Shown: positions 1,610-60,994 of the stretch, piece by piece
Numbering within the stretch: the stretch's first letter is position 1
Layout: each line of letters opens with the position of its first letter
Source of the DNA: Amoebophrya sp. A120
Lineage: Eukaryota; Protista; Dinoflagellata
DNA: 64,000 bases
Assembly: GCA_905178155.1 (NCBI GenBank)
Contig: CAJINV010000017.1
Location: 922,722-986,721, forward strand
Direction of reading: 5' to 3'
Notes under the pieces: model-generated
The model's input: only the letters and a program-made list of their open reading frames with translations
Database searches by the model: none
What the model was told of the DNA's origin: nothing
Program-made: the position numbers and the translations under genes

Positions 1610-4600
1610 ATGTCGCCGCCATCGAAGCTTAAGGTGAAGGCATACACCTACGAGGAGATCGCGAAGCACAACAGGGAAAATGATTGCTGGGTGGTGATCA
1701 ACGGGAATGTGTGCGATATGACCCAATGGCTCCCGGAGAATGAAGAGGACAGAAAGATTTGCTTGGCGGGAGCGGGTATTGACTTTCATACGGAACAAGA
1801 ACTATTTTGTGGCAGGATTTTCATTTTTTGCAACGATCTGTGGAACAGCGGTTCATTGAAGATATTGCTGCAAATGCAAACTAAGGCTAAGCAAATTTAT
1901 TATTTCGGAATCAACAACAATTTTGATTTTCTATTCCCAGTTTGAATTTAGAAGTAGCGAAGAAAAACCGAAATCACCACCAGGTACCGACATCTCCGAG
2001 AAGTGGAATAAACATAAGGGACCACAGGGGCGCGACTACCTTCTTATCAGGTGCAACTGTTGTGTCTGGGTCTGGAAGAGGATAATCATAATTTCATGGG
2101 TGTTTTGTCCATGTCCTGCCCTTTTCGGGTCACGCCGAAGATGGGCCGCAATGCATGCCACAGCACCACAATAGGGCTTGCGAAGGCTGCCTGCTGATGC
2201 GTATTTTGGATGCTGAATTCACATCCACTCTAGCAGGCGCGACGTTGACGTGGAGCCGCAAACTTCTACTCCCTGAGAAAATGCATGATACTATATGGAT
2301 TTTGGTGTGAGGACCACCATACAAGCCACGGGACGCATCGAAATTGCACCTCTTTCCAGACTGAGACACATTTGCAATGCATACCTCTTGTCAAGTGCCC
2401 ATGGACGGTTATTGGAACGGTGGACACCAGTGATGAAAGCAGCAACATCATCGCAAGTATCATGTCTTTTAGATCATGTGGTGTGTGCTGCAGAAAAAAT
2501 ATTATATGAACATGCATCGAGACGAAAATCAAAATGAAAACCGGAATCAAAATCATAAACATGAGACATTTGGTGAAAAAGCTGACACTTCTTCTTTTGC
2601 CGCAGCGTCGCAGCCTATGATCCGCCAGCAGACGAAATTTTTGAAACTCTGACTCACAACTTGTACACAGATTTCAACGCGAAAGTCAACGCAGAGGTGA
2701 TGGCAAACAAGAAGAAGGCGAGTTATTCTCTGGAGGAGATCCAAAAGCACAATAAGGAGGGCGACGCGTGGGTGACGATCCAGGGGGACGTTTTGAACGT
2801 GACCGATTTCATCTACGAGCACCCCGGCGGCAAGCTGGTCATTTTGAATCTGGCAGGGAAGGACGCCACAGAGGATTTCTTGTCTATCCACCCCGCGGAG
2901 GTCTACCGGAAACACGCTCCTTACCTGATTATCGGCTCCCTCGAGGATAAGAACAAGCCGGGAAAGGCGGGTGGGTTGAACGCCCCCCTGCTGGACAAAG
3001 CCCCGGAACCGGAGGACGAGGGGGACTTCCCGGGCATTGTGGGCTCGGTGTTCTACGCCCTGCGCGCCGTCTTGACACAGATCTTCGCCACGCTCTTCTC
3101 CATCGAAAATTTCAAATTATCAAACGACAGAACCGGGCTCACAAGGTATAGTTAGAGCCCGAGTCGTTCTATTCATTCATGTTGAATTTTTTCACTTTAT
3201 GCATGGTTATGCTAATGCTGTAATATGACATATTACAGCATTAGCATAGGCAAGGGAGTGATTTTATAGGCAAGGGAGTGAAACTTCGAAGGGAGTTAAG
3301 GGAGCCAAGGGAGGAAAATAAAATTTGTACAAATTGCCTCCCCTTAAAACATCGCCAAAATGCATGCTATGGACGCGCTTACCGGTCGCCGGTTTGCGCC
3401 CTGCTGCCCCCCCCCCCCCGCTGCGGCCCCAGGTTTGTCCGCGTTTAGGCATTGGCTCGCTGCCGAAGGCCCTGGCCTCTTGAAGAAGGTGAGGGCTTCT
3501 AGAGTCGCCCCCGTCAACAGGAGTCGCCGGGGCGGCCTGGCCTCTGCCTCGCAACAAAGAGCGTGGAGCCGAAGGAACGCGTAAACTGTTGCCGTGACCA
3601 TGTCGAGTTTCCGTCGTCCGGGGGAAGTCGCGGCAGCCACTTCAGCAATTTGCTTGTCGAGATCTTTCGGGCGAGGTTCTGCGTGACCAGATTCAACGTC
3701 ATGCCGAACAGAGAATACGAAGTGGAAACGTTGAAGCGGCCACTTCGACTTTCTCCAATCGGGAAAGAGTTGCAGTGACCGCCGGAACGCGCAGCAAGTT
3801 TGAAGCCCACACGCGTAGCATATGCAGCCTGCTTCGCGCTGATGCTTCGCAACATTCCCACACGTGGGCGCATGTCCTACATGTTGCACGTGCCTCGCTG
3901 CGCGCGCGCAGGGCGCGGCCCGCAAAATTTTTGCTGTGTGCGCACAGATGTCGATCCGCGCGCGCGCAGCGCGCGCCGCGAGAAATTTTTGCTCTATGCC
4001 GTTCGCATTGGCGCGCTCGACTGCTTTTTTATCTTACTCCCTTGACTCCCTTGAAAAGTTGCGCTGTACTCCCTTGGCTGGCGCCAGACACTAATAAACC
4101 TAATTATGTTCAAGCTCCTGTTCTTAGTTGTTCTTGGTTGTAGTGAGCAGGATCATGGATGCGCATCATGTAAGTAGTTGCTCGGAAGATGCCACCATGT
4201 AGAAACATTCACACGAAAAACAAAACAAAAGCAACATCACTTCCACCAACAACTCACATCTCAGATCCGCCATCTTCATGATGTTTTTCATGGTGATCCA
4301 CGCGGTGGGCAACCTGCACATTTTTCTGGGGCCGGACGATTTTAACGGGTACGGGTACTTCTACGTGCGGCTGTACTGGACCATGGGCGGGCTGGTGAAG
4401 GCCAACATCGTGGAAGTCTACCTCATGCTCGCCGCCATCCTGCACGTCACCATCGCCCTGAAGCGCACCTGGGACATCAACCGCAACTACACGATCACGA
4501 GCGGCAAATTGAATCTCGCACTCTCCGGCTCCGGTCTCCTCATCTTCATGCTCATCCACCTGAACCAGTTCCGCTTCGGCGACACGCAAAAGTACTTATT

Positions 4601-7852: not shown

Positions 7853-10800
7853 ATGGCGAAGAAACCGCTCGTCGTTTGCGTTACCGGTGCCGCGGGGCAG
7901 ATCGGATATGCGATCACCCCGATGATCTGCAACGGGGACATGTTTGGTAAGGGTTTTTCTTGGGAGATTGATGGAATTATGCAACCAGCACAAGCAGTTC
8001 ATCTGTTCCTGTAGTACTCTACCTGGCATGAATATTAAAGCCGGGATGATGTTGATGAATTGTGTTGTCACATGGATCATCAAATGCTATATAAATTTGC
8101 AGGTGCGGACCAGCCTGTGATTCTTCATCTACTCGACTTGCCATTCGTCATGGAGTCTCTGGGTGGAGTGGTAATGGAGATCGAGGATGGCAATTACCCT
8201 CTGGTGTACGGGGTCGTTGCCACCTCCGACCCAGCAAAGGCCTTCACTGGGGCAGACTGTGCGGTGCTGCTTGGCGCCTTCCCAAGAAAACAAGGTATAT
8301 AGCACAGATAGAACACTGAAAGTGAACATGAAGCTTTTTGTGAAGCAAAACATGAAGTGATAGCTGCTTCTGTCATGCTGGACCTCGCTCTGGTGCTGCT
8401 GCTGCACAGAGCCACTGAACAAAACAGATGAAGAATTGTCGATATAGGAAGATTTTCAGGAGGTATTCTTCTAGAATGCTATTTTTTGCATGCGCAGCAA
8501 CGTGGAGTCAAAGGCCCACCCTTAGACGCGCCGTTTCCTTAAATCAGGTATGGAGCGCAAGGAGCTTATGGAAAAGAACATCGGGATCTTCAAGGCCATG
8601 GGTGAAGCCGTGGAGAAAAACGCGAACCCTAACATCAAAGTCTTGGTCGTCGGATATCCTGAGGAAAAACGTTCCCAGCACCTCATAGTCAAGGTTGAGA
8701 CTTTGCATCACAGACCCTGAATTTTTGGAATTCACGCATCATGACAAGTTTCTCTCTGTATTGTAGTGCAGATTAGCAATGACAGCCGTATCAGTCGTAA
8801 AGCCCTCGTCCCGTTATCCTGTCTGCAGCATCACAAATGCCAAACCACTACTTGGAATGCCTCAGGCTCAGCCTCTAATTGGGATGTACGTTACAAAGTT
8901 TTCTGTGGATGCAAATCCGCATGAAAGCTCTGGGATGCAGACGCTTTTACTCAGGATATGGGAAACCCAGCAAACACCAACGCCCTGGTCATGAGCAACT
9001 TTGCTCCCAAGGTAGATGAAATGGATTTTTTTTTGCGCTTTTTGTCATGCAAATTTATGCTAATATAATATCTCTACTTTATGTCATTTGGTCTTTGCAT
9101 GATGAAAACGAAAAACAACACCACGACTTCAATGACAAAAGGTGCCGAAGAAGAACTTCACGGCCATGACCCGATTGGACCACCATCGAGCGCTGGGTCC
9201 TATCAAAATCAAACCAAAAAAAACATGTTCGCATGAACAGTTCTGCATTAAGGAGTGCATAGTTTCTTTTGCACGAAATCACATTCAAAACGCGACCCAG
9301 AAGATTGAACCAGTGTAATTCTGCTCGTTCTTGCTCAAGTCTAGAGCAACTTGGTTTTTCCTCATGATGCGGTCTTGATAAATTCGAGAATGTAGGTAGC
9401 GCTACAAAAATCAACGACAACGTGTACTAGCACAACTTGAGAACCAGTGGTACGGAAGAAACTGGCTGCTGTAACGAAGTTAACGCGACTGATGTTTTCC
9501 CCATCCATACCTTAAATCGCGTTGAAAGCGGGCTGCAGTGTGAGGGACGTGCAGAATGTGATTATTTGGGGAAACCACAGCAGTACGCAGTATCCGGATG
9601 TGAATCACGCGACCGTGAGCGGCAAGCCGGTGCGACAGGTGTTGGGCGATGACAAATACCTATCGACAAGGAAAGTGAAGGTGCGTCGTCAACAGAAACT
9701 ATGGCTGAGTTGTGACTGTGAGACATACGCATTTCAAATTCTGTTTTGAAAGCCAAGTCAAAATATTTTCCCACGTCGACGTGTAGCAATCTTCTAGCTG
9801 GTCGTACGACAATAACGTAAAAGCAATTTGAGATGGTGCGTTGTATCATGAGGATGATCATCTTCGCGGCAACATTGGGTCGGCATGTAGTAGTTCATTT
9901 GCATCTTGGTCATCACGGTTTCATTTCTAACGCACTACTTTCCTTATCCTTAGATAGCAACTCAATGGGGAATTCATCGAACTGATTCAGAAGCGAGGCG
10001 CCGCGATTATCTCAGCACGTATTCTTATTTGAAAAAAAATGATATATGTTGACTTTTTGATGTGTTACGCCGGTCGCATGATAGTCCAGGCTTTTGATGT
10101 CACTTTGGCTTTTCTCTTCGGATTCGGAAAAACAACAATGAGAATACAGAAAGATGACTCTGCTCCAAGATGAACATCTAGATGTAGATCTACATCAAAC
10201 ACAAAGTAAAGTTTTTGGTCTCAACAGGTAAAGCATCCTCCGCACTCTCTGCCGCCCGGATATCACAACGAAAAAAGCTAGCCGTAGCTGCGTGCAATGT
10301 TTATTAAACTGCTTTATTTTCATGATGCAAAAATAAATCGGCGCCCGAAATGCGAGTGCGTCTTTTTTTGCATTTTGAAGGTGTGTGTCTCGAGTTTGTT
10401 GCAGCATGTTGATAACGGACACAGATGTTAATTCCCATTCCGAAGGTCCGCGCCGAGTCCTCTGCTGTTTGTGCATCTTGTAGGGGCGAGTGATGGTGCA
10501 TAGAAATAAATATGATGCGCAGCTACAGCTAGCAATGAGTTTCCGTGTGATAAAGTGCTGCGGTGACACACATGCGGTCGTGGTTCTGTGGAACGCAGTA
10601 TCAAGTGAAACAAAACTGCTCGCACCTTCGTCCCCATTTGCGATTTTTAAACCCGCTTGTGCTGGTCATAGTCAACCAGATTAACGGGCTCCTGCTCTTG
10701 CTGGGGTCAATAAAAAAGACAAGCAACAAGCTTATTCTTAAAAAAGTCCAGCACCTGGATGTGCGGCGCGCGGTATTTTGCCTTGCACTTGTAGTCCTCG

Positions 10801-11326
10801 TTTTTTGTATGCCTCATGAAACATATTTATACCCATATTGGATTGCCAGCCTCACAGTAGGTCACGAAAGGGACGACCTCACACACGAGTGAGAAGTTTT
10901 GTCAAAACTTGATACCGAGCCGGGGGAGTACGTGTCTATGGGGGTTTTGTCCGATGGAAACGAATACGGCGTCAAGCCCGGTATAAAGAATTTGTGTCAA
11001 CATTTCTTTTCTTTCTCTCTACAGATGCATGTTCGTCAGCAGTATCCACCGGCAAGTAGAAGAAGTTCAAGGTTGTCTCTGTGGCTGTTCTACTTCAGCA
11101 CTGGAAGTACCTAGGTGTCTTCACGACGGCAGTTTGAAGTAAGTACCTGACTGCTCCGCATCAACTTCACTACGCAGGTTTGATGTACTCCTTCCCCTGT
11201 GTGTGTAAGGAGGGACAGTGGTCGATCGCAAACGGGCTCAAACTGGACACTTTTTCGAAGGACAAGATGAAGGTGACCGAAGCCGAGCTCCAGGAGGAGA
11301 AGGATCTGGCCTTCTCGCTGATCTGA
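7853..11326 (+). CDS. MDH1: Cytosolic-type NAD-dependent malate dehydrogenase, multi-exon
   Basis: [94 protein letters not shown]; stop TGA 11324-11326. Confidence 0.95.
8655..8958. mobile_element. Introner-like TIR insert, family B
   Basis: tatcctgaggaaaaacg...cttttactcaggata; DR tcgga/tggga; restores VVGNP. Confidence 0.85.
9201..9509. mobile_element. Degenerate TAT..ATA insert/intron
   Basis: Element plus 5 nt removal restores RALGQIALKAG; TIR and DR decayed. Confidence 0.55.
9661..9956. mobile_element. Degenerate TIR insert/intron
   Basis: tatcgacaaggaaagt...actttccttatccttagata; +5 nt removal restores DKYLNGEF. Confidence 0.65.
10261..10552. mobile_element. TIR insert/intron, decayed DR
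   Basis: tatcacaacg..gctagccgtagctgcg / cgcagctacagctagc..cgtgtgata; restores SAA(S)AAVTHMRSW. Confidence 0.7.
10599..10914. mobile_element. TIR insert/intron
   Basis: tatcaagtgaaacaaaact...agttttgtcaaaacttgata; DR cgcag/ccgag; restores GT(Q/E)PGEYVSMG. Confidence 0.75.
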
Positions 11327-14872: not shown

Positions 14873-17550
14873 ATGGTGAAGCCGGTCGACTACCGTCCGG
14901 GGTCGCTCCCCGACTCGCGCGCGGTGGAGGACTTCCAGAACCAGGAGATCGGTAGCTCCCACCGCGGCTCGATTCAGTACAACCGGGACATCTTCGCGAA
15001 GCAATGGCCCAGGACCACGGGGAAGTCGCAGCGGCCGTCCGAGGGGAAATTCCACTCGCAGATGGGCAAGAAAAATGCAGACGGCGTGAGCGGCTTGTCT
15101 GCTTTCGAGCTGGAAAAGCACCTGTTCAAAGAGAAAATGCGGCGGCTATCAAGATAAAAAGTGCCCCACCACCGACAGAATTGCAACTTTGTTTTGCAAC
15201 TTTGTTTTGTTCCACACGAATGGAACTTCTTCTTGTATTACAACAACAAACATGAAGAAATAGATATTGCGATTCATTTTGGACCTATGCCAGTGATGCA
15301 ACTTCAACATGACAGACATCGCTTACTACACTTTCCCCCTGTGGTGCATGAACACAAACCTTCGCTCCTCTGGCTTGAGAATTTCTCAAGCTGATAAGTA
15401 CATGCAAGGTGAAGAGAAGGTGGCAAGAGTTTCCATCGAGAGCGTTTAAGTACTTATTGCAATGCAAACGCTTGCACACAATTCGGGGGTGGTCGTGGCA
15501 CTTTTCGCTAGGATACCGGGGCATCATCTCCGAGCAGGACCCCTCCGTCTGCACCGTGAAGCCGGACCTGATCCTGCCCTCCGAGAAGCAGCGGCGCGCG
15601 CTGACCGCAGCGAAGTGGCGCAAATCCACGCAGAAGGTCACGCGGGCGGCCCGCATGCTGGGCGGGTGGGCGGAGTTCGCCGGCGTAGACAACATCGAGG
15701 AAGTCAACGACGAGCAGAAGCCGGAGAAGTCCGCGTTTCTCCGTACGGGAGACGTATTCCCGGAAGAACAGATCGTGGAACCGCTGTTCCTATCAACTGC
15801 AATAATTTTGTCTGGGACTGGGTCGTCATCTGGAAAAAGCTAGAAGTAGTTTCTCATGCACGTTTTGTCGATGTTGAACAAGAAGTGACGAGCCTCACAT
15901 GATGCAGCCGGGCGTAGCTGCATCTGCATGTTGATCACAGGTCCTGCGAGAGCTCGAGCTGTGCGATGCGTACTCGCTGTGGTCCAGAGATCCTCACTAG
16001 CAAAAAGTAAAAAGTACAGCTCTAGCGACTGATGCATGACTTTGCGTGACTGGCTCTGGCACCAGAAAGCATCACAAGTTTGCCTTTGCACCTGTCCGGG
16101 CCCACCAGCAGGCAACATCTTTGCATTTGATAGCTCCCTGGGAAAAACGAAAAGCCACGGGTGATGGATATTACGTTCACGAAGACGGGGAAACTGCAGA
16201 AGGAAGCGGTGGCCAACATCCCAAATTTGATGGCGGGGTTCGACAAAACCTTCCACGGGCCCATGGTGAAGAACAAGGCGGGGCACAAGTTCCTCCAAAG
16301 GTACAAGGTAAAGAAGCCCGAGCCTGCGCGGGCCCAGTCCGCTTCGGGGTACGACGACGAGGGCCCGGCCATGCGGTTGCCCTGCAAGTTCGAAGACCCC
16401 TCGATTCAGGATGTGGTGGCGGCGCTGGAAGACATGCATTACGATCAGAGGTAGGAAGTTGATGATTTCAGTGTTTTTACGATCGCCGAAGACTAAATAA
16501 CCGACTATAGACTTAAGTAGTACAATTAAGTATGTTTAGTGCTGCCGCTGGAGCTGTTATGGGCTTCTAGAGGTATTGACACTGTACCTAACACCTTGCG
16601 TGTTAATAAGTATAATAAGAAATAAATGTTCAAGTAGTATCCAAACGAAACCTCCCAGGACCCGCGGGCAGCCGGGTGAGGACTTGGAGAAGTTGATGAA
16701 GGCGGTGTTTGCGGACCGACCGGAGTGGCGGCAGCGCATGGCGGTGCTGACCAAGTCGCAGGTGCTGCGGCGGAAAATACTGGACACCCTGCCGCCGGGC
16801 GGCCGCCAGGTCGGGTCCGCCGTGCTGGGCGCCACCCACCCGTGGCGGTCCGCCGTGAAAACGGTGGAGGGGCGGGTCTACAAGTTTGAGGAGCAGAACA
16901 TCTGGCCGAGGTACGCCACGGACGCGGGGCGGTACAGCAGCGATCACAACTGGCCGAAGGCCGATCCGGTCACGGGGAAGCTCGCCCGGGACGTGCTCCC
17001 GTCGCCGTCGGAAACCATGCCGCAGCACCCGAAACTGACCAACTGCCCCTCCTACTCCTTCGGGAAGGGGCTGCGCCGCGTCGTCGCCGACCCCATCCAC
17101 GACATCTGGACCGAGGTCTGGAAGCCGCAGGACAAAAACTCCACGCCCGGCCCGGGGGACTACACCGAGGCGCTGGGCACGACGAAAACCCCGTTTACGT
17201 TGCAGCACAACCAGGAAATCGTGGTGCTCGGAGCGAACGACAAGTACGCCTGCAAGGGGATGCTGTCCCCGGAGATCACGCGGCTCGCGCAACACACGTG
17301 CAAGCCGGTCTACTCCTTCCCGTTGCAGCGGCTGCCGGACGTGGCGCAGGGGAATCTGGCGCAGGCCACCGCGGTCAAATCGGACCTGGGAAACCTGTCA
17401 CCGGGGCAGATTTACACGCAATACGGGGGTTTCCGGGTCAAGGACAAGAACTACGGCAACCGCCCGGCACGCACGGTTTCGCTAAAAACCATCGACAAAG
17501 CGTTGTCGGCGGGCCGGAAGTACGAGGTCGGCGGGAAACCGTATCGGTGA
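14873..17550 (+). CDS. Hypothetical protein with an STPGPGDY (PG-rich, SHIPPO/STPG-like) motif; 4 exons
   Basis: GC3-rich exons ~14873-15146, 15521-15790, 16138-16450, 16659-17550 join in frame; PSYSFGK and STPGPGDY motifs resemble axonemal PG-rich repeats. Confidence 0.7.
15147..15515. mobile_element. Introner-like TIR insert
   Basis: tatcaagataaaaagtgcc...ggcacttttcgctaggata; DR gcggc/ccggg; restores MRRGIISEQ. Confidence 0.75.
15791..16132. mobile_element. Introner-like TIR insert (ends related to family A)
   Basis: tatcaactgcaa...ttgcatttgata; DR gttcc/gctcc; restores LFPGKNEKPRVMD. Confidence 0.8.
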
Positions 17551-18755: not shown

Positions 18756-20393
18756 ATGGCACGTCGCGAGGCTTTTGCGGAAATGCGTCGGCGACTCGAC
18801 GAGCACGGGCTGGTTCGCCGAGTTTGTGATGCAGAAACCGGAACCGAGCGACTCGAGGTCGATTTTAGAATTGATCCAAGAAGAGGTGGAACAATGAGTG
18901 GGGGCGAAGCTGCATTGGAGGAACACCAAAGTTGCAGTGGTACTAGCAGAGCGGGACAAGAACGACAAATTCATGCTGCGACCAACAGCACAACACGAAG
19001 CCAGCCACCTGCTGATGTCGTGCGACACCAGCTCACGATTCCACTTACGCAGCACCTTTTACCAGGAGCGGGGGAGAACAGAAATAATACCAAGCGCCCC
19101 AGTTCTTCTACCGAGCATGATGTTGAGCAACACGTTTATGAGCACGACGGAACCGGTGTGGTGTTGTGGCCTGCCGCAGTGCTGCTGTCCGAATATTTGG
19201 TGAAGCAGGTGAGAAACGAATACGGAGCACTAGTACCTGTCGTCGGCGCCGCAACGTCACCAGGTCATCCGACGAGAGCGACGACTTCTACTAACACGAC
19301 TTCTGGCCCTTGCTCGAAGAAAATGAAAATCCTCGAGCTGGGTTGCGGCATCGGGCTTCCGGGAATCACCGCGGCGTATCTGAATCCGAGCGCCGAAGTT
19401 ACCCTGACCGACCAGTGCGTCCGAGCGGCGCAGGCGAATATTGCAATGCAAGAACATCAACGTGTAGAAGTACTTATGAACTGCAAAAGTGTCGTACTCG
19501 TGTAAATGCATTACAAATTTCCTCAGCGTGAGAAATGAAATTTGTAATGCGGATTTACCTTAGCAAAAGGATTTGCAATGCACGATTGCAATACGAGTGC
19601 GATAGTACTTTTGCACAGGATAGTACCAGTACCGAGGACATCTTCACGATCGGAGGTCCTCGAGGAGGCGACAAGAACTCCTCCTCCCCAGAGCTCTACC
19701 TTTTATCCTTCCGTGTCAAGCCGTCTCCATGCCGAGACGTTGTCGTGGGGAAGACAGGAGCTGGAGGAGAAACAAAGACAACTGAGCAGTAAATCATCTT
19801 GTGGTCATCTCCCGACATCATTTTCGACTTTGCAGTCGCATTCCTTCGACCTGATTCTCGGCGCAGACCTGCTCTACAACCAGGAGACGCCGGTTATCAG
19901 GAAACTGGTGGAATCGATCGATCAATTGTTGAAGCTTGAAGGAGGTGTTGACCTCCAAGGGAGTAGCGACAATGCAGCTTCCACTGGCTCGACGTCGCCG
20001 TCGGCAAGTTGGGGTGACCGCGACTGCAATGCTGCTGCTGACAAAGACGAAGGGTTGAAAGGTGCGATAGGACAACCGAGAGCCCTGATCGCCTTTGAGA
20101 TCCGTGGGACGTGGTTCACGCAAGCCGACTTTTTGGAGATTTGCACCGAGGAATTCGCGTTCGATGTGGAGACCGTGGATCTGACGAGTAGGATAGGAGT
20201 ACACGCCGTTGAAGATGCAGGGATGGATAAGGAGGAAACGAAAACAAGAAGAGCCGACGTGCAAGAGAGAACTGAGGGAGTAGAGCAAGCAGAAGTGGAA
20301 ATAAAAGACGAGCATTACGATGATCCATCGCGAAACGACATTTTTCTGTTCATTATCAAAAGAAGGACGAGGACCATACGACCAGGCAAATAA
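18756..20393 (+). CDS. Protein-lysine methyltransferase, METTL21/Methyltransf_16 family
   Basis: TGVVLWPAAVLLSEYL, ILELGCGIGLPGI, VTLTDQ, LSWG, FDLILGADLLY; two ORFs joined after removing 19475-19622. Confidence 0.9.
19475..19622. mobile_element. Introner-like TIR insert, family C
   Basis: tatgaactgcaaaagt...acttttgcacaggata; DR gtact/gtacc. Confidence 0.85.
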
Positions 20394-21019: not shown

Positions 21020-21454
21020 ATGGAAGCGACCACGTGGGTTTCTGATACGGACACTTCTGTCCTGGAAGACGTCGATGATGTGGGTTACTTCCACGAAGAA
21101 ATGGCCACCTGGCTCATCATATGCATTGCAAAAGTATCGCACTAGTATAAATCGCATGACAAATTTCCTCAGAATGTAAAATGGAATTTGTCATGCTGAT
21201 TTACCTTTGGAATCAGATTTGTCATGCATGTCTGCGATTACTTAGTACGATGCTTTTGCATTTGATACACCAACGGCTCCTACTACACCATGCTGGTTTT
21301 GCTGTTTCTCATCGCGCTCGCCTGGCTGAAATACCGGGGAGACATTCTTCGTTTTGCCCAGAGCCAGCGACCCCATGTCGGTGCTGCTGCGGTTAGCAGT
21401 GGCACGGCCGGGGTTGTGGTTCAGCAGCAACAGCAGGTTGCTAGTACTAGTTAG
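21020..21454 (+). CDS. Small single-pass membrane protein (not in ORF track); may extend past the TAG
   Basis: MEATTWVSDTD...MATWL(I/T)NGSYYTMLVLLFLIALAWLKYRGD... appears only after removing 21120-21267. Confidence 0.6.
21120..21267. mobile_element. Introner-like TIR insert, family C
   Basis: tatgcattgcaaaagtatcg...cgatgcttttgcatttgata; DR catca/cacca. Confidence 0.85.
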
Positions 21455-26964: not shown

Positions 26965-27069
26965 GTTGATAGTTCTTCAAAAAGAAAAAGGTCTCAGAAC
27001 TTCGAGAAGTAGGTATGAAAGTGGCGGAAATGATTCGGAGTTTCTCGGAACTTGAGTGAGTTATTTCAT

Positions 27070-44300: not shown

Positions 44301-47300
44301 GGACACGACCGCCCCCGACAACGTAGAAGATGAAACCCTTCTCGACCACCGGCCGTTAAAATTGACCCGGCAGATGATTTTCAACCACATCCAGAAGCAG
44401 AAAGCGCGATATGAAAATACCAATGAGGTTCCCATGGGCGACGACAAACACACGAAGTTGAACATCAGGAACTTAATCGATTTCCAGACTTATCAACTGT
44501 AAAAATGTCTGGGTCTGGAAGAATCCAACTTGTCATGCTGATTTTGGATTCTAAAAAAATCTGTATTGCATGAGCAGCAAAGAGAGTCCAAGTTTTGCTA
44601 CACGGAAAGAGCATTTGTCATGCGGTATAGGCATCAGGAAGCCCTCACAAAATCTGTGATGCTAGGGCATGCATCGCAGACATCAGGAGTCATGCAAAAT
44701 GTGCATGACAAGCCTGGCAATCCCAATCTTCCAGACCCAGACATTTTTACATTTGATAAGACCGACACGCTGCACGACTGGGGCAAGGTGAAGCAGAGAC
44801 TGGACAACGCGGTGTTCGACCCCACGGCGGAGCAGGGGACCAAGCAGTCCATCCGGGAAAGACGAGCCTGGAAGTACTGCAGCAATCCGTGGTTGGAGAA
44901 GAAAATTGAGGAGAACTACCGGGAAAACGCGGTGTGCGTGAACTGCCACGAGTTTGGCCACACCATCGAGGAGTGCGATAAGCCGTGCCGGTTCACGAAG
45001 GTGGACTTGGCAAACGCGGAGCCGGAAGACCGGACGGAGGACGCGCTGTATCGGAGGGTGGAAGAGGCGGTGGAGAAGCTGGCGAGTTGGAGAACCAGCG
45101 ATACGTGTGTCACGACAAGGTTCTCGATGTTCAAAATGCAACAACTACTCCACAAGTTGAAGCAGTGGGGCGGCGTGAGTGTCGAGGCGTTGCGCCGAAT
45201 GCACCTACCGCCGGAGAAAATCACCGCTTTAGTGGATGAGATCACGGTGTTGTCACAGTCGGGGTTGGTGTTTCCGGCCGAAGTCGACCCCTTGTGTCAA
45301 GTATCATTTGTAAAAACGTCCCCACCCAAGAGTTGTAATGCAAATCTGCATGCTGAAAATGTTTCTCATGCAGAGACCCATGAGAAGCAGTCTCTAGTCG
45401 TGTTGTGGGATTTGTGATGCTAGAATCATCATGATATGCTAGAACTGTGATGCTGCTGAACAAGCTAAACAGGATTACACTGCGAGGCCTAACTTGTCAT
45501 GCGCAACAGCAAAAGCTGACAGATTTGTCTAGCAGATTTCCCAGCTTGACTCTGGTGTGGGGACGTTTTTATTCAGGATATCAAGCGCTGTTGAAAAACC
45601 CCATGCTACTCCACGACCAGACGAGCCTGACCAACGCCCAGAATTACAAGGGCCAAAGAGACGCGTTCGGGGGGCGGCAGCCGCCGTTACCAGTGCAGCC
45701 TTTGTCGGAATTTATCGTGCGAAAAAAGTGTTTCACTGTAAGGATTTTGCAAGTTTGGCATGACAAGTTCGTTACACATGACAGGGAAAACTTGCCATGC
45801 GAGGTTCCTAAGGGAAAACACAGCTAAAAATCGCCTGTCTTGCATGTGTAGCAAGACAAACACTTCTGAGATGCAGTTTCTGCATTACAAGTTTACAGTG
45901 AAACAGTTTTTTCTTGCGATAGAATTCCGGAAGGAGCAGGGGATTCCAGACCCGCTGACGACCGCGATCAAGATATCCTGAGTAAAAACGTACCCACACC
46001 AGAGTTGTAATGCAGATTTGCAAAGACAGGAAGACTTGTAATGCGCATCCCCATGAGAGCCATTTCCAGTCGTGTTTTGGAATTTGCGACGCTGTGAACA
46101 GGATGAGCAGATGAATCTGTGATGCGGCTGCACTTGCTAACCTGCACTACACTGCATAGCGCAGCTTGTCATGCGTGACTCACAAAACTCCTAGGCTTGT
46201 GTTGCAAAATCCCCATCCTGACTCTGGTGTGGGTACGTTTTTACTCAGGATACAAGAACGCAAGTCACAGTAGCTCGTCGTCTAGCGGACCAGGAGGTCC
46301 GGCGGGAACCACCACCGCGGCGGCATCAACTGCAAAAACCCTTGCGCCGACCCTATCGCCCACGACAACCGCGGCAGCGGCCTCCTCCGGCGATGTTGCG
46401 ACGGTCCATCCTGACAGTCCGAACAAAAGAAGGGATTCGCTGTTCCCAGATTTCTACAACGACGACGATATGAGCAGTAGCGACGAAGAGGATAGCTTCC
46501 TTATTCCGAGTCTGAGGAAAAAGGAAGGCGAGCCGAGTTCTGCAAAGAATAACAACACATCATCTTCGGGCCAAGTAAATGATCAAAATGCAGGAAACGC
46601 CGACAATAACAACAAGAACACCGGCGCAAATACTAAACCTTTATCTGACCTGAAACCGGAGCCGCCGATTCACGGCCCGCCGCCGGTTCCAATCAGCGAC
46701 TGGAAGCACGTGGAGAAGATCTTTTTAGAAGACTACCTGCAACGGTATCTCTACGGCGCCAATGTGATGTCCCGGATTTTGGGGAGGGGCGGTGGGAACC
46801 ATAAACTAATGGAGCAAGAATCCGGAACCCGGATATATTTCCGCGGGGTCGGGATTTCCCCGGATTTGCGGAAGTTTCCGGAATTGGACCAGTTTTGCAT
46901 ATGCATTGCAAAAGTAGCATCGTACTCGTATACATGCTAGTCTTGCATCACAGATGTAGATTCTGACCCTATGCCGCTCCGGCCCCTGCGGAGGCTTGCC
47001 TCCCCAGCGACGCCGGACAATGGCAATGTCGGCGCGGTTGTTTTAGCATCGCAGAAGATGTAGATTTATACCTGAATCACCATGACACATTCCACTTTTC
47101 ATTTTGGAAAAATTATTTGCCATGCGATTTATACTAGCACGATACTTTTGCAATGCATATTACAACGACAGCAGCAAGATGATCTGGGACGACGACATTG
47201 AGAGGGACCGGCATAATGGCCGGGTCTCGATCACGAGCTCGGTACTACACAGGGACGGGACAATCACGTCGAGAACCCAAACGGAATACGCGGACTCGGA

Positions 47301-50300
47301 GAAGAGGCTGCACATGCTGGTGCGCGCGGAGTCGCCCGAGCAGGTGGTCATCGTGAAGAAGAAACTGAAGGAAATCATGGAAAACATCGACTTGGGGCTC
47401 CAAGTCGACGCCAGAATCCAGGATGTTTTCAACACGAGCAACCAACAAAATCACGACCAGGGCGGGCGAAACTCGGGAAACAACCTCCCCGCCGGCCCCG
47501 AGCACCATCCCTTCTACCCAATGGTCCCCTTCGAGGCGATCTACACCACGGAAGTTCCGGTCCGGGAGATCAAAAAGGACTGGAAGTTTCAGTTCCCGGC
47601 TTCCGAGGAATTTAAACCGCTCGCCGCGAAGATCGACCGGTTCTGCAAGGGATATTCGAAAGAAGTGGACAACTTTGTTCAATTCGCGAAGACCTTCGCG
47701 GAGGAGCAACAGACGTTGACACAGCAACAAGACGCAGCAGCACAAGCACTTCCTGACGTCGATAAAAAGAACCCCAACGCAGAAGTTGATGAAGACGGCG
47801 AGGAAAACGAAAATAATGGCAGCGGCACGACGACCAGCGCGACCGCCGCGAAGAAGATGACGAAGAAGCAGAGGGAAAAGGAGCAGCAGGAGAATCTGTT
47901 GAAGGAACTGGAGGAGCCGAAGGACTTGGTCCGAACCAATTGGTTCGGGAAACCACAACTGAGGTCCGAATTCCAGAACAACATTTTCGAAATCCCGGGG
48001 TTGGACCTGCCGGATTTCGAAGCCTGCGGCGATCCGGAATTCAACGACATCATAAACGCGTTCATCGCCATGCTGTCGGACTGGCAGCTATCCACAGTAA
48101 ATTTCCCGTACACGACGTACAAATGCGGTCTCTGCATGACAAAACATGGCTTCGATCCTACCTTAGCATGACAAGTTTTACGGCGCCCTATATTGGTGAA
48201 ATTTGTGATCCATGCATCTTGTACATCATGTACGGAAAATTTGTATTGCATAGTAGCGCCCGTACTGGTTTGAGCCGAATGAGTTGATCGCCACACAATC
48301 GTTAGTCCACGGTCCGTATGAAATGTAAAAATGTCTGGGTCTGGAAGATTCTGAAATTTCTCATGCATGTTTTGCATGACCCAGGATGTCTGTAATGCAC
48401 GACCGCGCATCACAGATTTTGAGAGGGCTTCCTGATGCCTACTCCGCATGACAAACGCCCTCCCCGCGTAGCACAAACTAGACTCCTCTTGCGGGTCATG
48501 CAATGCAGATTTTTCTAGAGTCCAAAGTTAGCATCACAAGTTGCAATCTTCCAGACCCAGACACTTTTACAGTTCATAGCCCGGTGGAGGTCCCGGAGGA
48601 GGCGAATTTATTGAAATTAATCGACCAGGCGGAGAACGCGAATTCGCCAACAGCGGGTGGCTTGAAGAGAACTGGGTCCTCTAATAGACCCGGTTTGAGC
48701 GGCTCCTTGAAGGGGAAGGCGGCGTCGACGCTACTCGCCGCACTACCCAAGCCGAAAGCAGCGATGGCAAAGCCAGCAGGAGCAGGTGCTATTGTGAAAA
48801 GAAGTAATAAGTTGCCTCCAAATATTTCCGCGATTGTGAAGAAGAAGATGAAGAAGTCGAGGAAAGCGCGGCGAAATCGCTACAGCAACAGCTGCTTCGC
48901 GAACAGTTTGCTCGCCGGGCACCATGTTGCTCTGTCCGACGCCGCGGTGGACCGGTTCGCACGGGTTTTGTTTCAGTCCGGACTTTTACCCTCAACTGTG
49001 ACGAGCTTCAAGCAGGTCGCTGACGGGTTGCGTGCCGCGCGCGGGGTGGTGCGGTGTGAGAAGCACGATGAGGAGTTGTTGATGATGATGAAGTACCCCT
49101 GGGCGGTGTATTCGGATTTGCACAAGTCCCAGTCCGTGAAAGACAAGGTCGGATACCCCTCAGGGCTAGCGGATGTCCACAAAGAGTTGAAAATGCTCGG
49201 CAGGAAAGCGCCCGTGGAGATCGTGGTGGAAGAAGAAGGCGCCTTGGAAACAAATTTCGGCACCGCAGCAAATAGTAAAATCGGCCCCATACCCTCCCCC
49301 CATGCATCCCCGAGACAGTCGCCGAAAACCGGTGCGGTTGTGCCGGCCAAGGCGACAGGAGCTGCGAGCAAGCCGCTGAACTCCCCGCAAATGTCCGCTG
49401 CACCTCAGGTGGATAAAAAAATCACGGCAACCACCATGTCTGAAACCACACTCGCGCTGCAGCGACCGGTGGGGAACAGGAAGACCCAGCTTTGCTACTA
49501 CGGCTACTTGGTCGACTGGCGGTTGCCCAACCCGCCGATGGAACAGAATCTGTACGCGCAAGAGCACGGGCTGGACGCGCTGAAGATCGACCAGCCGGAG
49601 GCGCCGATCATCCCGCAGAGACCCAAACAGCCGGTCATCGATCAACAAGCAGTAGCCGCGGAAAACCTGCAGAAGGCGTCGATGGCAAAGGCAGTGTCGA
49701 AAGCAGCGGTCGTCGACCCGCCGGCAGCTGCCAAAAGTGGTGGCGCGCAGACTGGTCCTTCTGCACCTGCCGGGCTGGTGGCCGCGGGGTCACTACCACA
49801 GCAGGGCATGATGAACAACAATAATCCGATGAATCAACAGCGAATTATGAATGCAAACAACAACCCGATGATGAATCAGATGCAAAATAACAGCGGGCAA
49901 AATTACAACATCAACCAGCCGATGATGATGAACAATCAGCAGACTAGCAACATGATGATGGGCATCAACCCCGCCAACAACAATAGCAACCTGCCGCCTA
50001 ATCCCATTCAAGCGACTTCCGCGAAAGCGCCGGCGTTGCTGATGGTCGAACGCGAGAAGCAGATTGGCGAAAAAACGGGCATCACCGCGAAACTGGTGGA
50101 TGCGGGTGCCGCGCAGAACATCGTCGTGTTGGAGAGCGAAAGAGAGGAGCAACGAAGACGACAAGAGGAACTGGCAAAGAAGCAGGCCGAATTGGAGCAA
50201 AAGAGGAAAGCGGAAGAGGAGAAAAAGCGGAAGGAGCAGGAAGAGGCCGAGAAAAAGAAGCGCGCCCAGGCGGAAATCGCGGCGCTCGCGATGCAGGCGA

Positions 50301-52055
50301 TTAACCCGAATAAGGCGGCGGAGACGATGAATAAACCGTCGGAGACGATGAATAATTCTTCATCGGCAGGTAGTTCTTCCTCCGGTGCTGGGGCAGGAGG
50401 GCCACCAGGTCAACAACAAAATCAGCAGGACCCGACGAACACGGCCGTTTTCCAAATCGAGAAGTGGCTGAACGACGAACAGAAGCAGGAGCTGCAGAAG
50501 ACCATCGAGCTGATCAAGCAGTGCAAGGGGAAACACCAGACGCTGCAAAACATGGGCGTCATGCAGGGCAAGGGCCAGCTGCCCGGTGGCATGACGGGCG
50601 AAGACGCGTTGCGGAAGATCCAGGAGTATTTGGCACAGCAATTCATCAAGCTCCGCACCTTGAAGGGCGCGGCGGCCTCCCGACAAGCGGAGATCGAGAG
50701 GGAAGAGCAGCGGAAGAAAGGGCCGCTGCTGATGAACCAGGGGCCGCAAATGCAACTATTGAAAACTCTCGTCCAGGAGCAACCCGACCGACCCGCGATC
50801 GACCCCCGGCAAGCGGCCTTAGCCGCGGCAAATCCAACGGGTCCGGTATTGAACTTCGGGGGAGGTGGATCCTCGGCGTCGAGCTCCAGTGCAGCAACAG
50901 GTGCAATAAACCTTGTCAACAACCAGCAACCCGCCAGCAGCAGTTCTTCTTCTCGACCCGTTTCCGCCGCGGCCTTGCTGGCCGGCGGGGAACTCGGGCG
51001 GCAGCAGTTCACGGGGAACGTGTTTCTCCCTCCGGAAACCTTCCCGGCCCGGGATCTGCACAAGAAGATTGCGGGGGAGGACGATGCATACTTCAAGCAC
51101 ATCTTGACAAAATGGCCCGGCACCGGCGTCACCTTCCACGGGCTGGCGCACGCGCAGGCGCCGGCGGATAATCGGTTAAAGATCATCGTTTCCTCCACGG
51201 ACCCCGACATGGACAAGTTCAAAGAGGCTTTTTCCAACGTGGTGGATCTCGCCGCCACGGTGACGACGGTGGTCTTACGAGAGCTCGGGGTCCCAGACGA
51301 CGAAAGGGAGAGAATCAAGAAGAGCATGCGCACGGAGATGTTCTCGATTGACGCCAACGGGACTCAGAAAAAGATTACCAAGGCGGATTCGGACGAAGAA
51401 GACACGGTGGAATCCGACGCAACCGTGCAAGGTAGCAGTGATGAAGATGAGTTTTAGCCGATTTTTAGACGATACTAGAAGTGGTGTTACACCACTTTTA
51501 TAGATGAATAAACCCAAATACACCACGTGTATTTGGGTTTATTCATGGTTTTAGTATAGTAGTCTTTTTACCGCATGGTAATATCTATATGGTGACATCA
51601 CATGGACATGGCATACGAGTTGTTTGATTGATTCGCATAATCTCTAGTAAGAACCGAAAGTGAAACATCCCGCACAGAAAAATGGTTACAGCTGCCACAC
51701 ATTTTGAACACATTTGACTACTTTAACATCTGCTACCGCTGCTGCAACAGAAGCTCCCTGCCCCAGGAGGAAGATGCATATCCTGCATGTAAGATGATCA
51801 ATGTAAATTTTTCCTCTGTCTGACACAGATGACGAGAGTCCCGTAGCTGGTGGAAACAACAACACCACCAATGGGATGAACCAGCCTGGTGGACCCCGCC
51901 CAAGTGGAAGTCCGAACTTCGGCCCTAAGGGAGGAGGTGGAAACGCTATGAACAAAGGAGGTGCTAATTATGGCAAAGGTGGTGGAAAACTTGGCGGGGG
52001 CATGATGAATAACAAAACCGGTGGTGGAGGAGGAAAAAAGGGAGGTTGGTGGTGA
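35369..52055 (+). CDS. Giant (~3,700 aa estimated) protein: chromodomain, 5 helical NPxK repeats, CCHC zinc knuckle, KH domains, Q/N- and G-rich tails; ~25 exons
   Basis: YEVEALLEHR..YFLIKWVGYDDPDFVPEEDL (35411-35520); CVNCHEFGHTIEEC (44935-44976); MSRILGRGGGNHKLMEQESGTRIYFRG (~46767-46847); frame is continuous after removing 16 TIR inserts and ~8 other introns. Confidence 0.8.
37886..38217. mobile_element. Introner-like TIR insert (TAC start)
   Basis: taccaaaaggaaaaatcccccctcccc...ggggagggggatttttccttttgata; DR cgccc/cgccg. Confidence 0.85.
38256..38512. mobile_element. Introner-like TIR insert, family A (core a)
   Basis: tatcaagcgtaaaaatgtctgggtctggaa...ttccagacccagacacttttacatttgata; perfect DR gaaga. 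Confidence 0.92.
40217..40478. mobile_element. Introner-like TIR insert, family A (core b)
   Basis: Same TIR; perfect DR gccga; restores IRPMLEK. Confidence 0.92.
40531..40675. mobile_element. Introner-like TIR insert, family C
   Basis: tatcctgtgcaaaagtatcg...cgatacttttgcaatgcata; DR gtgtt/gggtt. Confidence 0.88.
42183..42434. mobile_element. Introner-like TIR insert, family A (core a, reverse orientation vs 38256)
   Basis: Perfect DR actca; restores LELKGSNK. Confidence 0.92.
42494..42648. mobile_element. Introner-like TIR insert, family C
   Basis: Perfect DR cctct; restores SRLLDDIN. Confidence 0.9.
42813..42962. mobile_element. Introner-like TIR insert, family C
   Basis: Perfect DR ccgga; restores LDIRTPFD. 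Confidence 0.9.
43241..43507. mobile_element. Introner-like TIR insert, family A (core a)
   Basis: Close copy of 42183-42434; perfect DR ggagt. Confidence 0.92.
43575..43893. mobile_element. Introner-like TIR insert, family D (reverse orientation vs 23989)
   Basis: tatggaagtgtcaggattgaaatcgacaaagttgaaatgatttgtcatgc...tgacgcttccata; DR tggac/tagac. Confidence 0.92.
44491..44758. mobile_element. Introner-like TIR insert, family A (core b)
   Basis: DR agact/agacc; restores DFQTDTLH. Confidence 0.92.
45302..45580. mobile_element. Introner-like TIR insert, family B
   Basis: tatcatttgtaaaaacgtcccc...ggggacgtttttattcaggata; perfect DR tcaag. Confidence 0.9.
45713..45921. mobile_element. Introner-like TIR insert, family F
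   Basis: tatcgtgcgaaaaaagtgtttcactgtaa...ttacagtgaaacagttttttcttgcgata; perfect DR gaatt. Confidence 0.9.
45974..46252. mobile_element. Introner-like TIR insert, family B
   Basis: tatcctgagtaaaaacgtacccacaccagagt / actctggtgtgggtacgtttttactcaggata (32-bp perfect TIR); perfect DR caaga. Confidence 0.95.
46900..47159. mobile_element. Introner-like TIR insert, family C, enlarged
   Basis: tatgcattgcaaaagta...tacttttgcaatgcata; DR ttgca/ttaca; extra GC-rich core. Confidence 0.85.
48089..48252. mobile_element. Introner-like TIR insert, family G
   Basis: tatccacagtaaatttcccgtaca...tgtacggaaaatttgtattgcata; DR gcagc/gtagc; restores DWQRPYWFEP. Confidence 0.85.
48317..48578. mobile_element. Introner-like TIR insert, family A (core b, reverse orientation vs 44491)
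   Basis: DR gtccg/gcccg; restores VHGPVEVP. Confidence 0.92.
51504..51546. repeat. Perfect 20-bp hairpin in last intron or 3' region
   Basis: atgaataaacccaaatacac-cac-gtgtatttgggtttattcat. Confidence 0.9.
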
Positions 52056-58062: not shown

Positions 58063-60994
58063 TTGCGTTGCCAAAAAGCTGCGACGAGCACCGCAATGCG
58101 ACATGCCGCAGTCAGAAGGCGGGCGAGTCGATCATTGTTACGACGACCGGAAAGGACGACAGGAGCCCACGGAGCGGGTACTTCTCTTCAGCCCTCAGCA
58201 AAGCCGTCACAAAATCCGGTCCCTCCAAATGAAGCAAGTGGCCGCTGCTGGGAGTCTTCTTCATCTGCAGCTTCGGCTGCGTTCTCTTCGTCCAGTTCAC
58301 CGTGTCCGTCGTCCACGACGAAAAAATGCAGCACCCCGGCGTGGTCGACCTCGAGAGTCGCCTCCTTCAGAAGACGTGGCACAAAAAGAACCCCACCAAC
58401 GTCGACGCCGCTCGACAAGGTGGACGCAAGAACAAGATTGGACATGAAGGTGGCTTTTTTGCCGAGTAGTAGAAACCCCCGTCCGAAGCTCCTATGGCGT
58501 CTCCAGCAGACACAGACGGGCGCCACTACTCAACCGCTCCACCACCTGTTCGAGCGGTGGCGACAGAGCAGCGCGTTGTCCATGTTGTTTAACTCGGTCG
58601 GGCATTTGAGCATGTGCCTGTCCGTCGCGCCGATTTGTCCGCCGAAGCTGTTTTGGATCATGCCACTGCTGCTCCTCCGGTCTGCCTTCCGGACCCATCT
58701 GGTGACAAATATGACGGCGCTGCGAAACGCGGTGACGAGACAGTGCAGCAGCGTGAGTTGCAGGAGAATCATTGCGCATGATTCCACGCCGATGTTGGGG
58801 GTTGCAGAAGGTACTAGCACAGGACGAGGCGAAAATCTAATGGCTGGAACACAAACGACGACGGTGCTGTCGGTGCCCTCCAATCAGGATCTTGCTGCGT
58901 CTTCACCATCATGTTCTACAACTTCTTCTGCTGCATCCTCTTCATCCTCCAGAAGTCCACGCGATCGGCCGACCCGCACTCCACTACCACCACGTTACGA
59001 GCTCACTCTGCGTTACGCGGGGGGCTTCCGCCGCATCCTGACGATTGGGAAACTCACGGAAAACGAGCTGCGGCAGCAGGCGACTGAGAGCACGCGATCC
59101 CGGGCTGTGGAGATCTTCGGTCCTGTGTGGGCGAAGAAGCTATTTCCGACTTTGAGGAGGCTGCCGGAAGTAGGGGAAGTAGGGGACGAGGAGCATGGGG
59201 ACATCGAGTCGCAACGACCACACTCGTTTCGGTCTTCCTCTAGACCTACGAGTGGCAGCACGTCTTCATCTTCAACAGCACACGCACACGACAACGACGG
59301 CTGCAACAGCATCAGCTTCAGCAACAGCGTCATCTCCGACACGAACCTCGCGCCCCTTTCCGCCGTTTTGGATTCCACGCTGATCTCCTTCGATCTGGAC
59401 AAATGTACGATCCCGAAGCAGCTCCGCAAGCAGAAGTTATCCTGTGCAAAAGTATCGCACTCGTAGTGCAGGCATGTGCATTACAAATTTTTTTCTTGAG
59501 GGAAATCCGCATTACATACGAGTACGATACTTTTGCAATGCATAGAAGTGGTTTCGCGACGAGGAAGAGCCGTACTTTGTGCTCGAGGAGCGGACGGAGT
59601 ACGACCGAACGCGGAAGCAAACCATCGCCGCGGAAGTGAACTGCATGGGTGTGCGCCGGAGCATCGCCCGGGCGTTGGCGATCAGGATGCTGGCGGAGCG
59701 GGCAATGAGTAAGAAGTGCATCCGCTGGTGTCACGACGGAAGGATCTTTCGCAGGAAAAGCGTACGGCGGATTTTTTCGAGAAAGGCTAGGAGGAGAAGC
59801 GGGCGGGCCGATGGAGGTACAGCTGATCGAATAGTTGTGGAAAGCGACAAGAAAACTACACATACCCACGTGGCAACTCCGGCTGCGGCGCATTCTTCAA
59901 GCGCTGAAGCTACTCCCACTGGCGCATGCGCGTCCTCTTCCTCACCACCGACATCATCAACAGGAGGTCGGGTATTTTCATCAGCGAGCGATATACAATT
60001 ACAACAACGAGGACAACGACAACCACAGCACGACCATGAGCCGAAAGCTCGCTGTTCGGTGGAGCGAGATCACGCGAGTACCAATCAGAACACAGGACGT
60101 GCAGCTGCAGCGCCATCAGCGGGTTCAAAAGCGAACGTGCCTCCCTTCGCAGAGCAGCTCAGACTAGTGCGGAATCGCGTCGATTTTCTTCTGCAACGCC
60201 GGCTTCAGAGGTACAAAGCCTCTTTGGACAGCTTTCTGCGAAATTACCATCCGGCGTTTCTACAGGGCGAGTTAGAAGTGGATGTGTTTCGAAAGGATAA
60301 GGCGAGTGATTGGAAGGTACGAGGAGAAGAAGCTGAAGCGCCCACGGCAACAAGTGGTGATCACGAAGGTTCACGTCCATCTTCATCATTCTCCTTATCA
60401 CGAATCACCCATGAGGCACCAAGAAGTGTTGGTGACGTGACTCTTCCAGGTCCGACATGTGAATATTCGGCAGAAGCAGACGTTGGCCAACAGGAAACAA
60501 GTCGCAAAAAGAATGAGGGCCATCTTCGCGAAGATCCTAAGCGGCGATACCACATGCGCACGAAAATGAAACTGCCGATCGCAAGGATACCCGCGTCTGT
60601 CATCGGCAGACCGTGGCACCACATGACGCTGAACGACGTCCGTGACTTTACAAGGAGCCGAACTTTGCTGAGTAATCTTACAGGCACATCTTCAGTGAAT
60701 CGCTACGGCAACGGCGGCGCCACGTGTAATTCCGGACAGCACGAAGATGGCCATGGCGCTGAAGGCGCAGCCAGAGGAGAAAAGAACGCTGACGATGCAA
60801 CCATCATCGAGATCGGCCCCTTTGTGTTTCACATCGTCACACCACACGCGAAGGCAGACCGAGTTAAGAGGGTCAGCTTGCAGCGGGAACTGCAAACCAT
60901 GTTGAAAAAGGACAGAAGCGACGCGCTGCGAACCTTTTTTGGTGGATTGTTGCTGCTGGGTGTGAGCCAGACAATCTTTGAGGACCTTCTGTGA
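58063..60994 (+). CDS. Hypothetical S/R-rich protein (~900 aa), C-terminal hydrophobic segment
   Basis: ORFs 58063-59466 and 59579-60994 fuse in frame (QKWFRDEEEPYFVLEE) after removing 59438-59544; first ATG ~58096. Confidence 0.65.
59438..59544. mobile_element. Introner-like TIR insert, family C, shortest copy (107 bp)
   Basis: tatcctgtgcaaaagtatcg...cgatacttttgcaatgcata; perfect DR gaagt. Confidence 0.92.

Follow-up and report, generated by a model that had tools for sequence, protein, structure and literature searches.

The closest described system is that of the introner elements of the dinoflagellate Amoebophrya sp. A120 (Farhat et al. 2021, PMC7789003), for which 29,850 repeated introns are reported, with inverted repeats that run TAT, then seven variable bases, then three or more As, and with direct repeats of 3-5 nt. 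These elements measure about 240 nt, fall into many families, have non-canonical borders and are removed from RNA; the direct repeats are described as varying in position, with 'no clear splicing signature' and borders that are variable or unknown. Here we analyse a window of 64,000 nt from A120 (contig CAJINV010000017.1, positions 922,722 to 986,721 of the forward strand) in which 29 inserts with TAT…ATA ends interrupt coding exons. The inserts agree with the published introners in ends, length, family structure, non-canonical borders and removal from RNA, but the flanking repeat is strictly 5 bp and a single cut, which keeps bases 1-4 of the left copy and base 5 of the right (hereafter the 4:1 register), likely serves them all.

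Gozashti et al. (2025, PMC12130899) class most A120 families as DNA elements with terminal inverted repeats (TIRs) and enter family 38 as 'Ginger, 5-bp TSD, TA/TA termini', where TSD denotes a target-site duplication. By our own reading of the rows, however, 7 of the 58 A120 families have a TSD entry of 5, the rest having 2-6, 11 or a blank, and no common register is stated. Ginger-type transposons differ from the present elements, which end in TAT…ATA and in which no integrase was found; the same paper describes the A120 family as being without Ginger termini and TSDs. The introns of the tunicate Fritillaria borealis derived from MITEs (miniature inverted-repeat transposable elements; PMC11282704; bioRxiv 10.1101/2025.08.15.670264) likewise combine TIRs and a TSD with no GT-AG and are removed by an altered U2 spliceosome, but they favour AG-AC/AG-AT ends, whereas first and last bases are free here. 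Euglenid nonconventional introns (PMC11282704) likewise have conserved triplets that pair and stand at a set distance from each cut, as well as a hairpin and a MITE-like origin. Their triplets are CAG/CTG at +4 to +6 and -8 to -6 and their products are circular, whereas the register proposed here would place TAT/ATA at +2 to +4 and -7 to -5, beside a strict 5-bp repeat. The introners of Micromonas, Aureococcus, Symbiodinium and Polarella (PMC9860276; bioRxiv 10.1101/2020.10.14.339549) also have TIRs and TSDs, leave a restored mRNA and often occur in both orientations, yet they bring with them, or co-opt, GY/GH and AG sites, which the A120 elements neither carry nor require.

An exon of the cytosolic malate dehydrogenase (MDH) gene is 100% identical to an Amoebophrya sp. 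A120 protein, and the spliced MDH model is identical over its first ~259 aa, up to element 10599 (elements are named by their first position). Given this protein identity and the matching ends, the inserts are the published A120 introners, not look-alikes, and the system is already known. A first-pass annotation of the window had compared them with introners of Amoebophrya; that the class is not new stands, but the likeness was understated. A 5-bp repeat is in print for some families, though not as a rule, and no statement of a fixed register for A120 introners was found in the open literature, reviews included; figures 3 and S19-S23 of PMC7789003 may bear on it. The fixed placement of the cut would thus be the addition made here.

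The 29 inserts lie between 2045 and 59544 in eight genes, all on the plus strand and within exons (Table 1). They are 107-369 bp long (mean 251), AT-richer than their surroundings and placed inside reading frames; 28 start with TAT and one (37886) with TAC, and all end in ATA. A gene-blind scan for TAY…RTA pairs whose flanking 5-mers differ at no more than one base and whose ends are complementary at 13 or more of 20 bases returned 23 pairs, compared with a mean of 1.0 in five Markov controls. The list was extended to 29 by the end profile and a manual reading of the MDH gene, in full agreement with the number, lengths, ends and count of host genes first annotated. An alternative start at 37914 for element 37886 was rejected, with 13 rather than 19 of 20 bases complementary. 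The flanking repeats also fall into the classes first given: 12 are perfect, 12 have one mismatch and five are decayed (2-4 mismatches). Identity between the flanks averages 0.81 at k=5, against 0.20-0.36 at k=2-4 and 6-8. Across the six slid registers, canonical U2 GT…AG ends arise for one element alone (23989), as had been noted.

Deletion of the element with 5 nt opens the frame in 29/29 cases, and retention gives a truncated or frameshifted protein in every one. The first-pass annotation had stated that this deletion restores the frame every time, conserved MDH motifs included, which holds, but frame alone cannot single out 5: deletion of the element with 8 nt also leaves all 29 frames open, and with 2 nt 26 of them. 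The choice of 5 nt is made because the flanking repeat, the MDH alignment and the RNA contigs fix it. Introns in the gene models were set by hand, since the automatic gene finder skipped short exons; a homolog check covers four of the eight models, and the acceptor at 16658 is one among several that preserve the frame.

Repeat length was further assessed outside the window. The end pattern of one young family retrieved 161 loci (L001-L161), a set biased to young families, all from one other assembly. One protein there is 90% identical to its A120 counterpart, and the source is therefore a relative; none of the loci overlaps a window gene or supplied an empty orthologous site. Pairing ends without using the flanks gave 279 pairs and, at a TIR score of at least 24, 272 distinct elements, of which 218 have an exact 5-mer repeat, five an exact 3-mer, one a 4-mer and none a 6-10-mer. 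The uniform 5-bp duplication claimed for the different families thus holds in the window and in the relative. Among the relative's 258 elements with full flanks, 75 have flanks that are confidently coding, and 69 of these imply 5 kept bases modulo 3. Orthologous MDH proteins have no extra residues, a comparison at the protein level rather than a DNA test.

Loss of the element together with one repeat copy occurs at the RNA level for eight of the 29 elements. Contigs of run X3, taken as RNA from its spliced contigs, were aligned to positions 37000-49000. The letters left between aligned pieces number 49, 174, 0 and 59, the exact prediction for 2, 3, 1 and 2 elements each lost with 5 nt, although such group sums could conceal offsetting shifts at hidden inner exons. 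One further element is seen on one side and 20 lie outside coverage; raw RNA runs X11 and X12 gave no coverage of the exons. The precise removal first proposed is supported by these contigs. Most elements have, at a distance of up to about 20 nt, in-frame GT/GC-AG pairs whose use would add or delete residues; splicing at such nearby sites, named at first as an outcome that would contradict removal, was not seen at RNA-covered junctions. Ciliate internal eliminated sequences have TA-bounded ends, which those seen here resemble. Removal from DNA in this manner, or editing of the borders to GT-AG in RNA, is nevertheless disfavoured to the point of being very hard to credit. Canonical intron borders (39808, 41805) are further points at which the X3 contigs end, and these contigs therefore represent spliced RNA, not element-free DNA; canonical introns, too, are absent from the contigs that lack the elements. 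In the DNA-like run X1, which may itself be the source of the assembly, contigs extend from within an element across the exon and into the following element with no differences and at a depth of 38-44, so that DNA retains the elements. Possible RNA editing is reported at 2-4% of borders only (Farhat et al., PMC7789003).

A perfect repeat leaves the position of the cut indeterminate, and the borders were therefore called variable or unknown in PMC7789003. Where the copies differ, the RNA contigs retain base 2 of the left copy in 3/3 cases (40531, 48089, 48317), base 3 of the left copy in 1/1 (46900) and base 5 of the right copy in 1/1 (44491). As bases 2 and 3 come from the left copy and base 5 from the right, the RNA allows a cut after base 3 or 4 only. 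The MDH gene was used to discriminate further, in an alignment of 26 full-length orthologs of 30. A uniform cut after any of bases 0 to 3 produces stops, and one after base 5 changes a Gln and an Ala that are invariant in 26/26 orthologs, whereas a cut after base 4 yields a clean 328-aa protein with 293 identities to the A25 MDH. At element 9201, cuts 0-3 lead to a stop and cut 5 to Pro where 26/26 orthologs have Gln; at 9661, cuts 2-3 lead to a stop and cuts 0-1 lose an aromatic residue kept in 26/26; at 10261, cut 5 replaces the invariant Ala. The 4:1 register alone fits all eight informative elements (five from RNA, three from MDH), seven of which exclude its mirror, 1:4. Thus, on sequence grounds, the intron is likely N-TAT…ATA-NNNN, with a fixed cut.

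Element ends themselves are uniform. Among the 44 of the end profile, TA is present in all and T is third in 43, while A occupies positions 11, 12 and 13 in 40, 40 and 42; TAT, seven variable bases and AAA match the description of A120 introners. In the five oldest elements the terminal TAT/ATA pairs are intact (15/15), while positions 5-20 of the TIR are 42% complementary and the repeats have decayed. The triplets, rather than the flanking repeat, would therefore have been selected after insertion, which supports the original proposal of a boundary defined by the element instead of GT/AG.

The 30 modelled canonical introns all start with GTA (13 with GTAT) and 28 end in CAG. In the 4:1 register, all 29 elements would have an NTA donor (T at +2, A at +3) with A, T, C or G at +1 in 10, 8, 7 and 4 cases, and the final two bases take 12 forms. 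The elements of the relative have G at +1 in 28/69 (G in coding sequence, 30%), a final AG in 7/69 (background 7%) and both in 3/69. T is also second in all nine of the commonest non-canonical sites of A120 (Table S4 of PMC7789003), for which a near-complete spliceosome is reported.

From these data we propose, at a probability of about 0.65, that A120 introners are placed by a cut-and-paste transposase with a 5-base duplication and are removed with one repeat copy, at a fixed position, by a relaxed spliceosome. A transposase acting in trans would recognise TAT-S-N6-AAAA ends and internal GCATNACA repeats and would insert the element in either orientation through a 5-bp staggered cut. The pre-mRNA then sheds the element and 5 nt, as seen for eight elements, which restores the original codons. 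To judge from mismatched repeats, the left copy would be cut behind its fourth base and the right copy ahead of its fifth, giving N-TAT…ATA-NNNN; as the element ends are symmetric, both orientations would present the same signal. The T and A of the element would stand at +2/+3 as in GTA donors, and a U2-type spliceosome would accept the donor without G at +1. The 3' cut would be measured 4 nt past the terminal ATA, probably aided by a hairpin, with neither AG nor an intact repeat needed.

It is also somewhat more probable than not, in our estimate, that one geometric code covers the approximately 30,000 'signature-less' introns of A120. This code would consist of TA at +2/+3 and at -6/-5, with cuts 1 nt to the left and 4 nt to the right outside the element and with the first base and last four bases free. 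The machinery would have dropped G at +1 and the 3' AG and would measure from the transposon ends, such that any TAT…ATA element duplicating 5 bp would be a ready-made intron at any exonic site and in either orientation. The geometry would be shared by A25, with its TTA ends and TT- donors.

Points concerning the register, the origin and the removal of the elements weigh against this account and are considered in turn. Base 4 is pinned just by protein conservation at two MDH elements outside RNA coverage, and the RNA pins no single element to one register. The polarity read from the contigs presumes leftmost joint placement, as occurs in 3/3 perfect-repeat cases, and codon scores at 12 mismatched elements of the relative did not discriminate between polarities. 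In the published annotation of family 2 (n=9,716), AN acceptors (67.9%) and NT donors (68.8%) are in balance, which 4:1 alone does not predict; this might be read as aligners picking either 4:1 or its mirror. An exact removal length with a cut position that varies by element, as in the published description, would accommodate these points. We consider it improbable, since all eight informative elements are compatible with 4:1, seven of them excluding 1:4, and the repeat length is essentially 5 in the relative.

Mismatches between repeat copies are unevenly spread: 11/27 fall at base 2 (intron position -3). In six of these 11 the intron-side base is C, which matches canonical CAG, and five lie at third codon positions; exon drift is also possible. 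A drift of the intronic copies toward GT-AG was considered and not seen, G being on the intron side in 0/6 base-5 mismatches.

As to origin, the elements bear the hallmarks of MITEs: TIRs, a TSD of constant length, short non-coding sequence and occurrence in both orientations. Four multi-member families (17 elements) and 12 singletons are present in the window, with members in both orientations, and element sequence in run X1 shows the very high summed contig depth of repeated families. A single transposase type may lie behind all of them. However, Pfam matching found no transposase family among 24 open reading frames (ORFs) of the window and no match in 37 ORFs of seven long or unpaired copies from the relative (37 of 63 listed, the 26 from L063 being left out as that locus holds ordinary elements). 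Farhat et al. (PMC7789003) found no transposase in A120 and rule out general mobilisation of its introners by one. Moreover, all 29 elements lie in coding exons, which make up 52% of non-element DNA, contrary to the expectation for plain MITE insertion; flanks in the relative are coding-like for 199/258 elements. Both this exonic placement and the lack of a transposase match would fit a spread of the elements via RNA, by reverse splicing into mRNA followed by reverse transcription. We regard that route as remote: family members occur in both orientations, TIRs and a duplication of strictly 5 bp point to a staggered cut in DNA, and gene-biased insertion is common for DNA introners (PMC9860276).

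Long copies were sought in the relative, where six of the 279 paired spans exceed 450 bp and 27 ends are unpaired. A 2,992-bp autonomous candidate on L025 was discarded, having turned out to be an ordinary short element. Four long copies of 457-834 bp (L027:632-1465, L059:3400-4030, L056:571-1051, L029:4314-4770) have perfect 5-bp repeats and ends that match short families, with middles of extra DNA that have no Pfam match.

Internally, GCATNACA has 68 matches in 23/29 elements and fewer than 0.1 per kb outside introns. GCATNACA/TGTNATGC repeats are common to unrelated families (23/29 elements) and could possibly serve as a transposase binding site or as an intronic splicing signal.

Removal by a relaxed U2 spliceosome, which we infer, must be set against the most serious rival: the same elements and fixed cut, with removal by a non-spliceosomal nuclease and ligase reading the terminal hairpin, as proposed for euglenids. 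Neither G at +1 nor AG is needed in the elements, and U1 small nuclear RNA was not detected in A120 (PMC7789003). An end-to-end RNA hairpin is predicted (terminal pairing probability at least 0.5) in 24/29 elements, and in euglenids the introns have fixed triplets near either end that pair, and are released as circles (PMC11282704). No branch-site consensus at a fixed position fits the elements, T standing two bases before A at -7 in 12/29. Conversely, the five elements without predicted end pairing, which weaken a hairpin-aided 3' cut, include 9201, whose removal must be exact. The register also places T and A precisely at +2/+3 of the host's canonical donors, and in Fritillaria a changed spliceosome takes out transposon introns that are not GT/AG. 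On balance we consider the nuclease and ligase unlikely, and a relaxed spliceosome would remain the probable agent.

The distribution of elements in positions 1-61000 is uneven, with 16 in one gene and none in canonical introns or intergenic DNA; a 2.9-kb exon (48583-51457) and a 2.1-kb ORF (28684-30843) are free of them. Intron phases 0/1/2 number 17/5/7 for the elements, 6/14/7 for canonical introns and 35/12/22 for the elements of the relative. That canonical introns are aged introners was unsupported, ATA being found at -7 to -5 in 2/30 and TIR scores being at background. Canonical donors are always GTA, and an A-rich, G-poor stretch replaces the pyrimidine tract at canonical acceptors. 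CATG occurs 10 times per kb in canonical introns versus 4 times per kb in exons and in intergenic DNA. The public A120 MDH model (P0002) reads through 10599-10914 into an unrelated 97-residue tail, and removal of this element restores the conserved C-terminus. About 50 RNA reads of run X11, which has the same species label, match the element within 40208-40608 at 90-95% but match no exon; the family is therefore carried by another strain. No Rfam family was found in the window. The long GT-AG intron at 3146-4264 contains a perfect 20-bp hairpin (3208-3248) and a GC-rich insert of about 760 bp with AAGGGAG inverted arms (3289-4052), without a Pfam match. Intergenic positions 55800-57500 are GC-rich (64%) with nested inverted repeats (56733-57012), and three long frames there gave no Pfam match.

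Table 1. Introner elements and principal host genes in the window (repeats as left/right copy; introns predicted in the 4:1 register).
Feature	Position	Strand	Flanking repeat	Predicted intron	Remark
Element, cytochrome-b5-domain gene (1610-5419)	2045..2383	+	CTTCT/CCTCT	2044-2387	
Cytosolic MDH gene	7853..11326	+			5 canonical and 5 element introns; fixes register
Element, MDH gene	8655..8958	+	TCGGA/TGGGA	8654-8962	
Old element, MDH	9201..9509	+	GGTCC/CCTTA	9200-9513	invariant Gly-Gln only with 4:1 cut
Old element, MDH	9661..9956	+	ATACC/GCAAC	9660-9960	stop if cut after base 2 or 3
Old element, MDH	10261..10552	+	CCGGA/AAGTG	10260-10556	base-5 cut alters invariant Ala
Old element, MDH	10599..10914	+	CGCAG/CCGAG	10598-10918	overlooked by public A120 gene model
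Element, gene 14873-17550 (no family)	15147..15515	+	GCGGC/CCGGG		
Element, gene 14873-17550 (no family)	15791..16132	+	GTTCC/GCTCC		
Element, lysine-methyltransferase-like gene 18756-20393	19475..19622	+	GTACT/GTACC		
Element, small gene 21020-21454	21120..21267	+	CATCA/CACCA		
Element, ODAD1-like coiled-coil gene 23219-26964 (weak Pfam match)	23989..24285	+	TGAGG/TGAGG	23988-24289	sole 4:1 register that is GT-AG
Element, ODAD1-like gene 23219-26964	26363..26523	+	AGCAA/AGCAA		
Chromo-domain host gene	35369..51457	+			carries 16 elements plus 7 canonical introns in the model; removing them leaves a single 3,620-codon open frame
Element, chromo-domain gene 35369-51457	37886..38217	+	CGCCC/CGCCG		TAC start
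Element, chromo-domain gene	38256..38512	+	GAAGA/GAAGA		~260-bp family
Element, chromo-domain gene	40217..40478	+	GCCGA/GCCGA		gone with 5 nt from spliced contig
Element, chromo-domain gene	40531..40675	+	GTGTT/GGGTT		left-copy base 2 kept in contig
Element, chromo-domain gene	42183..42434	+	ACTCA/ACTCA		
Element, chromo-domain gene	42494..42648	+	CCTCT/CCTCT		~150-bp family
Element, chromo-domain gene	42813..42962	+	CCGGA/CCGGA		
Element, chromo-domain gene	43241..43507	+	GGAGT/GGAGT		
Element, chromo-domain gene	43575..43893	+	TGGAC/TAGAC		family of 23989, opposite orientation
Element, chromo-domain gene	44491..44758	+	AGACT/AGACC		right-copy base 5 kept in contig (right border alone visible)
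Element, chromo-domain gene	45302..45580	+	TCAAG/TCAAG		missing in spliced contig
Element, chromo-domain gene	45713..45921	+	GAATT/GAATT		missing in spliced contig, by length account
Element, chromo-domain gene	45974..46252	+	CAAGA/CAAGA		missing in spliced contig
Element, chromo-domain gene	46900..47159	+	TTGCA/TTACA		contig skip 265 = 260 + 5 nt; left-copy base 3 kept
Element, chromo-domain gene	48089..48252	+	GCAGC/GTAGC		left-copy base 2 kept in contig
Element, chromo-domain gene	48317..48578	+	GTCCG/GCCCG		left-copy base 2 kept in contig
Element, ORF 58054-60994 (no family)	59438..59544	+	GAAGT/GAAGT		

The outcome refines a known system and does not amount to a new one. The original paper left the removal route of these elements with 'unknown' borders, and a single register would supply one rule for 16 x 16 apparently random splice-site pairs. 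If true, it would point to the sites of the branch point and of snRNA pairing, would correct gene models such as the public MDH, and would explain how these elements can insert harmlessly into exons in either orientation.

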